From contig CALXVV010000002.1 of NCBI GenBank assembly GCA_944392205.1, forward strand, positions 20,949-84,948: DNA of 64,000 nt. Reading direction: 5' to 3'. Made by a program: the position numbers and the translations under genes. Positions 28,383-29,066 of the stretch are shown piece after piece. Numbering within the stretch: the stretch's first letter is position 1; each line of letters starts with the position of its first letter. This stretch comes from an uncultured Alphaproteobacteria bacterium (GTDB lineage Bacteria > Pseudomonadota > Alphaproteobacteria > RF32 > CAG-239). The notes below the pieces were generated by a model. The model made no database searches. It saw only the letters and a list, made by a program, of their open reading frames with translations, and was not told the origin of the DNA.

Positions 28383-28411
28383 TTGACATTTTATTTTTGT
28401 TTTCATATAGT
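28383..28411 (+). promoter_or_regulatory. Near-consensus sigma70 promoter driving the tRNA-Ala cluster.
   Basis: TTGACA (28383-28388), a 17-nt AT-rich spacer, then TATAGT (28406-28411). Located about 10 bp upstream of the first tRNA-like sequence. Confidence 0.65.
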
Positions 28412-28423
28412 CGCCTTGACCTT

Positions 28424-28447
28424 GGGGTTATAGCTCAGCTGGGATGG
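28424..28447 (+). pseudogene. 5' fragment of tRNA-Ala (24 nt, acceptor arm plus D arm), truncated.
   Basis: ggggttatagctcagctgggatgg is identical over 21 nt to the 5' end of the intact tRNA-Ala(GGC) at 28592. It is followed by 144 bp that contains a second fragment (gcgcttgaatg, around 28551-28561) from the same tRNA. Confidence 0.6.
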
Positions 28448-28591
28448 CTAAGCGAAAAGAACCCCAACGGGTGCTTTTCGTCTGCAACATCTTGGCTGCC
28501 TTGCCAAGCCAGGGAAGCGACAGCAACCGCAGCGAGGATAGGCACCCAAGGCGCTTGAATGAGCGCTCGACCTATTATTTTGTTGCAACAT

Positions 28592-28667
28592 GGGGTTATA
28601 GCTCAGCTGGGAGAGCGCTTGAATGGCATTCAAGAGGTCAGGAGTTCGATCCTCCTTAGCTCCACCA
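28592..28667 (+). tRNA. tRNA-Ala (anticodon GGC).
   Basis: Cloverleaf read by hand: acceptor ggggtta/tagctcc with a G3:U70 Ala identity pair, D arm gctc...gagc, anticodon stem cttga/tcaag with loop atGGCat, T arm ggagttcgatcctcc, and encoded CCA. Confidence 0.85.
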
Positions 28668-28707
28668 ATTTCAAAAGACCACTAAAAAAGTGGGCTTTGT
28701 TTCTAAT

Positions 28708-28783
28708 GGGGGTATAGCTCAGTTGGGAGAGCGAATGGTTCGCAATCATTAGGTCAGGAGTTCGATCCTCCTTACCTCCACCA
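28708..28783 (+). tRNA. tRNA-Ala (anticodon CGC).
   Basis: Acceptor gggggta/tacctcc with G3:U70, D arm gctc agttggga gagc, anticodon loop ttCGCaa, T arm ggagttcgatcctcc, and encoded CCA. Confidence 0.85.
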
Positions 28784-28830
28784 ATAAAACAACAAGACCG
28801 CAGCCTGTTTTCGGGACGCGGTTTTTTGTT
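28776..28830 (+). repeat. Direct repeat copy 1: the tRNA-Ala 3' end plus a terminator-like hairpin.
   Basis: cctccaccaataaaacaacaagaccgcagcctgttttcgggacgcggttttttgtt is repeated at 29010-29066 with 1-2 mismatches. Confidence 0.7.
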
Positions 28831-29009
28831 TACCTTTTGGGAGGAAAATCCTCCTCTAGCTTACTAAGCTCCCTCTCGTTCGCTAAGTGCGCGTCGGTCA
28901 CTCGGTTTGTAACGCTTGCCAAGGGGCGCTCACGCTTGCTTGGCTCGCTAACAAACTGTCGCCTGTCGTTGAAAAACAACCGGAGCAACGGTTGTTTTTC
29001 TTCCTCCAG

Positions 29010-29066
29010 CCTCCACCAATAAAACAACAAGACCGCAGCCCGTTTTCGGGACGCGGTTTTTTGTTG
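29010..29066 (+). repeat. Direct repeat copy 2 (about 57 bp), including a pseudo 3' end of the tRNA.
   Basis: cctccaccaataaaacaacaagaccgcagcccgttttcgggacgcggttttttgtt. It is preceded by cctccagc, which resembles the T-arm cctcctta. Confidence 0.7.

Follow-up and report, generated by a model that had tools for sequence, protein, structure and literature searches.

Small structured modules inside partial tRNA copies at a tRNA-Ala operon of an uncultured alphaproteobacterium point to tRNA-seeking mobile DNA

Pieces of a tRNA-Ala gene lie scattered around two intact tRNA-Ala genes in the genome of an uncultured member of the Alphaproteobacteria (CAG-239), and this locus raises the question of what put them there. 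Integrase-borne elements classically land in tRNA genes, and a partial tRNA copy is routinely interpreted as the scar of such an element. An earlier note on this DNA had likewise taken the fragments and a duplicated tRNA 3′ end for the footprint of integrase-mediated insertion and excision. In our study, we analysed the 64,000-nt stretch that carries the locus (contig CALXVV010000002.1 of assembly GCA_944392205.1; hereafter the window) and compared it with related loci and contigs, numbered L001 to L101. The modules found at the tRNA genes of relatives point to an undescribed tRNA-seeking mobile element rather than to the scar of a lost prophage. For the window, our leading yet tentative reading is that an ordinary two-gene tRNA-Ala operon was hit twice by members of one family of GC-rich, hairpin-rich, non-coding modules of ~105-160 nt, here called X and Z.

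All features described in the earlier note are present, at or within 1-2 nt of the positions it gave (Table 1). The operon promoter now reads into a partial tRNA copy and module X. The fragment met first is identical to the gene start over 22 nt: this repeat comprises 1 nt of leader and positions 1-21 of tRNA-Ala(GGC), its left copy being a displaced tRNA 5′ end and its right copy base 28591 plus the first 21 nt of the intact gene. Behind the X body follows a second tRNA piece, GCGCTTGAATG (28551-28561), which equals tRNA-Ala(GGC) positions 24-34 at 28615-28625 and thus lies 2 nt beyond the repeat. It forms the 5′ arm and the loop of a junction hairpin, the 3′ arm of which (AGCGC, 28562-28566) is an inverted copy of its first five bases. 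The tail TCGAC is common to X in the window, X in L013 and a remnant of X in L021, and the 19-nt spacer within 28567-28590 resembles the spacer preceding tRNA-Ala(CGC) in relatives. Both intact genes, with anticodons GGC and CGC, were confirmed by ARAGORN and by Rfam (61 and 64 bits).

On the downstream side, the duplicated unit of tRNA 3′ end and terminator measures 56 nt. Its copies R1 and R2 agree in 55 of 56 positions, fold into a hairpin followed by a T run and bracket 179 nt (28831-29009). This segment opens with a degenerate copy of the tRNA T arm, GGAGGAAAATCCTCC (28840-28854; GGAGGA-AAA-TCCTCC, corresponding to about tRNA positions 49-64), and the Z body behind it shows a small domain at its 5′ end, a long stem in the centre and, at 28971-29000, an A/T-flanked hairpin of 12 bp. 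Exact direct repeats of the region reach 31 nt, compared with 7-14 nt across 200 shuffles, so that the repeats are not explained by chance. Neither the 56-nt repeat nor the inserts have a further copy within the window, and the repeat is therefore specific for the locus and not a member of a generic terminator family. Fold z-scores are -2.8 for X and -5.3 for Z plus repeat. Two assemblies made independently from other samples (L098, L099) show the layout again with 99.95-100% identity, and it is thus no assembly artefact; both contigs end inside the locus, as is expected if its parts are repeated elsewhere in the genome. In the window, the operon would now be transcribed with a structured leader of 168 nt and followed by three terminator-like hairpins.

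Table 1. Positions of the features of the tRNA-Ala locus in the window and of selected features in contigs of relatives
Sequence	Feature	Position	Strand	Remarks
Window	Promoter TTGACA-17-TATAGT	28383-28411	+	sigma-70-type, consensus 11/12; native to the tRNA-Ala operon
Window	22-nt direct repeat, left copy	28423-28444	+	22/22 nt identical to 28591-28612
Window	Module X body, 106 nt, non-coding	28445-28550	+	57.5% G+C versus 42.7% in the window
Window	A/T-flanked hairpin within X	28453-28480	+	
Window	Junction hairpin GCGCT-TGAATG-AGCGC	28551-28566	+	
Window	Tail TCGAC and 19-nt spacer	28567-28590	+	read directly from the sequences
Window	Intact tRNA-Ala(GGC)	28592-28667	+	ARAGORN; Rfam
Window	Intact tRNA-Ala(CGC)	28708-28783	+	ARAGORN; Rfam
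Window	R1, left copy of 56-nt repeat	28775-28830	+	last 9 nt of tRNA (CCTCCACCA, including CCA) and intrinsic terminator of the operon
Window	9-nt tail and degenerate T-arm copy	28831-28854	+	tail copies, in degenerate form, the sequence that flanks the repeat downstream
Window	Module Z body, 155 nt, non-coding	28855-29009	+	53.5% G+C
Window	R2, right copy of 56-nt repeat	29010-29065	+	tRNA 3′ end and terminator
L090	Tandem Z array	144-450		
L092	Tandem Z array	336-642		
L097	Tandem Z array	10378-10684		
L093	Tandem Z array	1116-1575		
L091	Prophage gene, terminase gpA	671-2611		prophage also encodes a ParB-like methyltransferase and an S-adenosylmethionine synthetase
L091	Prophage gene, large serine recombinase	10185-11891		

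A common layout was found at the analysed sites. Read outward from the intact gene, it consists of the intact tRNA, a segment D, a short tail, an optional piece S′, a piece S, the module and D again. D comprises 22-87 nt, made up of part of the tRNA and its outer flank, i.e. the terminator in 3′ duplications and the spacer in 5′ ones; the measured duplications are 22, 36, 53, 56, 58, 64 and 87 nt long, and the copies are 100% identical in L013, L079 and L094. S represents 7-16 nt of the tRNA that lie beyond D after a gap of 2-3 nt, i.e. the target reads S-nn-D and nn is lost. Each time, S matches the local tRNA (GCGCTTGAATG in the window, GCGATTGG in L013), and at the T-arm sites of the window, L021 and L009 the piece likewise agrees with the T arm of the local tRNA. 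An inverted copy, S′, often stands before S; this gives a perfect 20-nt palindrome at tRNA-Pro (CCAAAGCAAG/CTTGCTTTGG) and arms of 5 bp in X of the window and of L013. Insertion points are located at tRNA positions 21/24 (X), 37/40 (tRNA-Pro) and ~59-64/68 (T-arm sites), and only 9-24 nt separate the repeat of the intact gene from S. The end of Z that bears the hairpin and 9-13 nt adjoins D at six of seven sites, tRNA-Pro being reversed, and the other module end varies in length. In every inspected pair of direct repeats overlapping a single tRNA, the copies are separated by a module-type body. The module sits inside the partial tRNA copy, not between two attachment (att) sites.

A scan of a genome collection for KdsB yielded 80 loci, all from metagenome-assembled genomes (MAGs) of uncultured Alphaproteobacteria from human, ruminant and other animal guts. 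In a dozen of these loci, synteny extends over GNAT gene, promoter, tRNA-Ala(GGC), tRNA-Ala(CGC) and terminator, in this order. In an alignment of six related loci (A1), the −35 hexamer of the promoter and its position are invariant, with inserts present or not. L011 and L020 are empty at both insertion places and show the bare series of promoter, tRNA, tRNA and terminator; X appears as a clean 168-nt indel between the promoter and the first tRNA gene in the window and in L001. In L013, whose KdsB is 93% identical, X is found as a clean indel before the second tRNA gene (CGC). This copy (L013 4955-5088) shares 87% identity with the X of the window. On both sides it has a perfect repeat of 36 nt, in which 15 nt of spacer are joined to tRNA positions 1-21, and its 5′ fragment GGGGGTATAGCTCAGTTGGGA and internal piece GCGATTGG match the tRNA-Ala(CGC) of L013 itself. 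The hairpin reads GCGAT-TGGAA-ATCGC there, the 3′ arm having changed in step with the 5′ arm (GCGAT/ATCGC versus GCGCT/AGCGC in the window). The remnant in L021 lies before the second tRNA gene as well. The duplicated 5′ fragment, for which the earlier note had suggested repeated or aberrant events, is thus no oddity, since the same layout occurs in L013 at the other tRNA-Ala gene and the general layout also at 3′-side sites. Unequal crossing-over, either between the two tRNA-Ala genes or between 5′ fragment and gene, was considered as the route by which X left the CGC gene for the GGC gene; the order seen in the window does not result from any single exchange, and the match of the 11-nt internal piece to its new host would be left unexplained.

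The downstream insert is polymorphic between strains. L001, from the same species (~96% identical), has one repeat copy and lacks the 179-nt segment, which is present in L004, L005 and L010; L098 and L099 match the window. Strain polymorphism is therefore seen at ~96-100% identity. X is 98.6% identical between the window and L001, with flanking genes at 91-96%. With indels among relatives and a repeat specific for the locus, the observations differ from the fixed architecture and generic terminator repeat that the earlier note had named as grounds for giving up an insertion. In L010, ATTAAAC and GACGTGGTC occur in both repeat copies, that is, R1 and R2 co-vary between the window and L010. The two copies consequently homogenise each other, and repeat identity is not a clock.

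Three observations concern the assemblies themselves. L010 begins with 410 nt (1-410) of ~60% G+C, at the end of which lies a tRNA-Ala with the mismatch G5-G68. The contig is therefore probably a chimera joined in the conserved tRNA 5′ end, and its upstream side was left unused. In L009 (3300-3540), a tRNA-Lys locus is fused within Z to the right half of the tRNA-Ala locus, which reflects a genuine rearrangement or else a join made in k127 assembly; L009 was used solely as evidence of a second Z site. Contig ends fall at the module locus in L003, L006, L098 and L099. Module-bearing tRNA loci look like weak points of MAG assemblies.

The inserts of the window have homologues at tRNA loci of relatives, as the earlier note had suggested should be checked. 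The family was detected beside tRNA-Ala, -Lys, -Pro, -Ser and -Arg genes of related uncultured gut and rumen Alphaproteobacteria, in 0-3 copies, and a profile of Z finds all Z-type copies. Besides the window, Z is present at tRNA-Ala in L010 and L021, after tRNA-Lys(CTT) in L009 and at tRNA-Pro(TGG) in nine faecal-metagenome contigs (L089-L097) with 1, 2 or 3 tandem copies. The repeat at the tRNA-Pro site has 64 nt and is made up of tRNA positions 40-76 and the terminator of that very gene. A diverged form, Z′, follows tRNA-Ser(CGA) in L079, where the repeat is 58/58 identical, and in L025, where three units of module plus repeat are found. A nested form, Z″, occurs at tRNA-Arg(TCT) in L044, and other GC-rich bodies (U and V) stand in a like structure at tRNA-Arg in L024 and L036. 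Across genomes, the copies amount to six or more tRNA contexts, Z-type modules are known from five further ones than that of the window, and two sites in one species are implied by L009 compared with the window.

Two side observations belong to these copies. At the tRNA-Pro locus, the Z unit is 153 nt long and is repeated in 2-3 direct tandem copies with no target repeat between them (Table 1), which differs from the module-plus-repeat units at tRNA-Ser in L025. In L048 (8000-8450), a Z-like module stands immediately 3′ of a truncated reading frame for an ISL3-type transposase (...DRFHVIKL...). Two tRNA 3′-end/T-arm fragments come after it, and the locus, which has no intact tRNA, looks like one more heap of tRNA and module debris.

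Over ~100 nt, including the hairpin and a block AGG(G/A)AAGCGACAGCAACCG..GCGA, X shows homology to the reverse-complemented tRNA-Ser module of L079 and L025 (z = 11.8), and an X-type profile has a weak opposite-strand match in the L021 Z module (E = 0.002). X and Z thus belong to a single family within which they have diverged, plus-strand X corresponding to the reverse complement of Z. The central stem of Z has compensatory changes in 5 of 10 pairs, its variants being GTTTGT/ACAAAC in the window, GTCTTGT/ACAAGAC at tRNA-Pro and GTTCACT/AGTGAAC in L021. A long A/T-flanked hairpin at the 3′ side is kept in all homologues with a different sequence each time.

Searches beyond the relatives gave little. 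In a permissive Rfam search of 28350-29120, just the two tRNAs passed, the next best match reaching 21.9 bits versus a threshold of 48. A plasmid collection held no match to six module types, and in a phage collection only tRNA-Ala genes and one unannotated faecal contig, MT837050, were matched. The latter was discarded as a phage, as it is a mislabelled bacterial tRNA-Pro locus with Z. Four further pattern scans of viral contigs returned nothing, and a metagenome pattern scan for Z returned the tRNA-Pro locus of one species only, with copy-number variation and no new targets. A small protein encoded by X (a 71-aa open reading frame (ORF), 28444-28659) was also considered and dropped: no homologue was found in a set of 5.8 billion proteins, and the differences to L013 are not codon-patterned.

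In our judgement, the layout is best explained by an additive, target-duplicating insertion of a small tRNA-seeking element that is mobilised in trans by a helper, an explanation whose likelihood falls a little short of even. The module would enter together with, or while creating, the 22-87-nt duplication of one side of its target. A duplicating hit is the only kind that leaves a needed tRNA gene working and hence the kind that persists. S and S′ may record the copying step, in which the growing strand would switch to target sequence next to the break and then fold back on itself; the copying itself would be target-primed or break-induced template switching, with the helper enzyme presumably acting in trans. 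Once the module is in place, its flanking repeats act as other direct repeats do: they delete it (L001), amplify it (three units in L025) or homogenise each other (window versus L010), and dispersed copies form breakpoints for rearrangement or mis-assembly (L009). It is possible, if rather doubtful, that these are undescribed miniature elements homing to the D-, anticodon- or T-arm of tRNA genes, whose copying insertion duplicates 20-90 nt with the outer flank on the 5′ or the 3′ side and so regenerates an intact tRNA. Likewise, we propose only with reserve that two or three lost target nucleotides, 7-16 nt of copied adjacent target and, often, a snap-back palindrome might form a diagnostic signature. 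Such a signature could perhaps fit target-primed synthesis with template jumping, resembling that of short interspersed nuclear elements (SINEs) or break-induced, with a helper enzyme that would be encoded elsewhere.

The resemblance to retroposition concerns several features. Target-primed retroposition is marked by duplications of variable length, one fixed end and rearrangement at the far junction, and an association with tRNA genes is also seen for eukaryotic SINEs and some retrotransposons. The modules share with SINEs and other retroposons that lack long terminal repeats the variable duplications, the small target deletions and the inverted or extra copied sequence at the far junction, and their conserved end abuts the duplicated target at six of seven sites. 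They differ in the bacterial host, the lack of a reverse transcriptase in the window, of an A-tail and of any sign of an RNA intermediate, and the opposite polarity at tRNA-Pro. Rickettsia palindromic elements are short structured non-coding repeats of ~100-150 bp that occur within genes, including RNA genes, and have no obvious transposase. They resemble the modules in alphaproteobacterial lineage, size and structure; they lie in frame in coding genes and are not known to make long target duplications or to be tied to tRNA genes.

Miniature inverted-repeat transposable elements (MITEs) are likewise small, non-coding, structured and dispersed, with presence and absence between strains. In contrast, the modules target a gene class, the tRNAs, and not a motif, two or three target nucleotides are lost, and a further piece of the target is copied and inverted at one module end. 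No terminal inverted repeats join the ends of X or Z, which read TGGCTAAGCG...CACCCAAG for X and TCTAGCTTAC...CTTCCTCCAG for Z. The short target duplication of fixed length that marks MITEs and insertion sequences (IS) is absent, and no transposase-bearing relative of the modules was found in the loci or in the phage, plasmid and viral collections. A flanking target duplication that is long and variable in length is known from IS1549 and IS1634, where the direct repeats span 8-514 bp and the mechanism is unknown (PMC2266710). X and Z are best filed as small, non-autonomous, tRNA-gene-associated mobile DNA, and they display the defining features of no known family.

Several points weigh against insertion of such an element. 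No helper enzyme, circular or excised form, or autonomous relative was detected in the loci or in the phage, plasmid and viral collections. Independent insertion events are few (~6-8), all of them come from metagenome assemblies, and copies were tallied across genomes. Terminal inverted repeats are missing, the length of the duplication is not fixed, and no known transposition chemistry fits; the reversed orientation of the tRNA-Pro module relative to S and D argues against strictly polar copying. Repeats with a tRNA 3′ end are the classical product of an integrase, and a prophage with a serine recombinase abuts a partial tRNA-Pro copy in L091. In addition, the window shares Z at tRNA-Ala(CGC) with the more distantly related L021, and this copy may go back to an old insertion passed on by vertical descent; as the repeat copies co-evolve, their identity tells little about age. 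Finally, the fold-back at T-arm sites could simply be the natural T-arm hairpin.

The main rival consists of decayed integrase-borne islands. Here, phages or integrative and conjugative elements in tRNA genes would have produced attL and attR and then been mostly deleted, leaving X and Z as conserved att-proximal arms that related integrases could still recombine or amplify in trans by accretion. Cis-mobilizable elements (CIMEs) of this kind and their tandem accretion are documented (PMC5704250), and repeats including a tRNA 3′ end are described as an att signature in a passage of PMC9897764 that cites Williams 2002. The locus has much in common with them: the tRNA target, the intact gene that is kept, the partial copy that is left, direct repeats containing part of the tRNA (22 and 56 nt in the window, 36-87 nt in relatives) and, with the tRNA 3′ end, of classical att type, tandem arrays and strain polymorphism. 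The three module-plus-repeat units of L025 look like tandem site-specific integration, and the DNA flanking the tRNA-Ala operon varies among strains and species, as seen for an adenylate-kinase-like (ADK-like) gene and a gene of 310 aa. Larger elements are piled at the same sites, too. In L091, a prophage (1-12900; IMG/VR UViG_3300014947_000103) sits exactly at the 3′ end of the partial tRNA-Pro copy beside Z and encodes a terminase and a large serine recombinase (Table 1), and in L092 a different foreign segment (~700-1732) begins 7 nt inside the 3′ end of the intact tRNA-Pro. With these two insertions, duplicated tRNA ends are seen to act as additional landing sites for larger elements.

Nevertheless, we regard island decay as somewhat unlikely. 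No integrase, transposase or reverse transcriptase was recognised by Pfam among the 54 ORFs of the window, and no recombinase lies in these 64 kb or beside the inspected tRNA-Ala, -Ser and -Arg copies of relatives, whereas in L091 the prophage with its large serine recombinase does abut the partial tRNA-Pro copy. The modules measure 105-160 nt and carry no recombinase gene. One module family is accompanied by different repeats, each with the terminator or spacer of its own locus, which an attP identity block confined to the 3′ part of a tRNA would not produce. X duplicates a 5′ end together with its upstream spacer, and does so at two tRNA genes with matching local fragments. Instead of a contiguous partial tRNA copy, we find a copy that is split by the module into S and D with 2-3 nt missing, so that the module is bordered by S and D, whereas island DNA would be bordered by attL and attR; a fold-back copy of the target stands at one module junction. 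A serine-recombinase-type exchange at the 2-nt gap was also considered and rejected, as the module ends lack the target dinucleotide. That different islands should decay repeatedly to the same module boundaries is not likely either. Of the earlier interpretation, one part holds, namely that the tRNA pieces mark polymorphic insertions; the integrase as their agent is not supported, given its absence from the window and the recurrence of the 146-179-nt inserts. As this DNA recurs as a conserved module at other tRNA genes with local repeats, it is not the residue of one island at this site.

An unlikely alternative to the tRNA-seeking insertion with its own duplication has two steps. Partial tRNA copies would have come first, as att scars or by local tandem duplication at heavily transcribed tRNA genes, and a tRNA-seeking module would then have inserted, with only hits in dispensable copies surviving. 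Insertion in or next to tRNA loops or arm junctions with a loss of just 2-3 nt and no duplication at the module ends would agree with this, survivorship would explain that no interrupted intact gene is seen, and simple insertion predicts the opposite orientation found at tRNA-Pro. However, no module-free partial tRNA copy exists among the inspected repeat pairs, and integration is not known to yield partial 5′ copies that include upstream spacer. The partial copy also ends 7-16 nt past the module every time, which is unexpected if duplication and insertion are independent.

The conserved folding of the modules suggests another explanation, in which X is a structured leader and Z a small RNA or extra terminator, both resident in the tRNA units of this clade, and the repeats arose by slippage and gene conversion. 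Stems with compensatory changes, a terminator-like 3′ hairpin and the fold z-scores given above would suit functional RNAs, X is more conserved than the neighbouring genes, and gene conversion between R1 and R2 is evident. We still consider it very unlikely, since X and Z are missing from most orthologous loci, including those of close relatives, with a further absence in strain L001, the orientation relative to the tRNA varies, as does the copy number (0-3), the duplication is a separate, freshly identical one at each locus, and no Rfam family matches. A tmRNA-like gene, split into a 5′ piece (167 nt) and a 3′ piece (189 nt, ending CCTCCACCA) by the tRNA genes, or else an assembly artefact, is effectively refuted: the combined ~356 nt have tmRNA-like length, with a G3:U70-type Ala acceptor sequence at the 5′ end and CCA at the 3′ end, but ARAGORN reported no tmRNA in the native sequence or in three concatenations, the Rfam permuted-tmRNA model scored 14-20 bits versus a threshold of 47 and hit tRNA T arms only, X and Z occur independently in relatives, and the near-identical independent assemblies speak against an artefact.

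If insertion of a tRNA-seeking element is the correct explanation, a second process makes tRNA fragments in common uncultured gut and rumen Alphaproteobacteria, carried out by very small non-coding modules that have no recombinase of their own, cause long and variable duplications and use either gene end. tRNA fragments and "att sites" in the annotation of MAGs would then need a different interpretation, and the modules would account for contigs of these genomes that break repeatedly, or turn out chimeric, at tRNA loci. Structured leaders and extra terminators would be placed around tRNA operons, and the junction signature would become a concrete handle on the insertion mechanism and the helper enzyme. 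Should island decay be true instead, the locus would be a well-documented case of extreme decay and accretion, and an ordinary one.

Pfam hits among the 54 ORFs are all to housekeeping functions: gyrB, polA, parE, rpsB-tsf, kdsB, dnaX, recR, radA, mlaE, parAB, gidAB, mnmE and rho. The genes downstream of the operon, an NT5C-like HAD hydrolase and a HIT protein, had been suspected of being cargo of the phage type. HAD lies directly upstream of kdsB in 10 species-level genomes (70-86% aa identity), 5 of which have no tRNA-Ala nearby, and HIT stands beside kdsB in 48 of the 80 loci; adjoining kdsB across genomes, both are chromosomal genes and not cargo. A segment upstream of HAD (29086-29106) resembles the start of the tRNA promoter at 28381-28401 (GATTGACATT..., 76% over 21 nt), which is probably merely a similar −35 region.

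Two genes next to the operon vary. The ADK-like P-loop gene (27712-28299, minus strand; Pfam ADK, 3e-19; with flanks 27675-28375) lies between GNAT and the tRNA promoter and was met only in this strain type, none of the 80 kdsB loci giving a tblastn match. An intact copy is present in L098-L101, the contigs that match the strain, whereas the copy of L001 has an internal deletion in which window positions 27830-28239 are missing. Because the GNAT stop runs straight into the promoter in L011 and L013, this gene represents a strain- or species-specific insertion upstream of the operon. The 310-aa gene (Pfam DUF805, Bundlin, PilS), which has its own terminator, lies between repeat and HAD in L001 (3822-4754), L004, L005 (223-1155), L009 and L010, and is absent from the window (29065/29066). 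The end-points of its deletion are two terminator T-tracts (TTTTTTGTT, TTTTTTATT).

Some minor observations were made elsewhere in the window. A solitary N6/N4 DNA methyltransferase (2545-3519, plus strand; Pfam N6_N4_Mtase, 2e-49) is preceded by three small ORFs (97-2265) with no Pfam match, and no restriction-enzyme partner was recognised among the scanned ORFs. Rfam gave a match to the Rickettsia sRNA47 above threshold (65 bits; 19670-19974, minus strand), antisense in an S41 peptidase (ctpA-like) gene at 18965-20257, which may reflect conserved coding sequence rather than a small RNA. A leader of rpsB is located at 24389-24495 and the bacterial signal recognition particle RNA at 36705-36800. 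The cluster parB, parA, gidB, (PHP, HD), mnmG/gidA, mnmE and rho at 49736-60724 is typical of the alphaproteobacterial replication-origin region, and the window is therefore probably origin-proximal.

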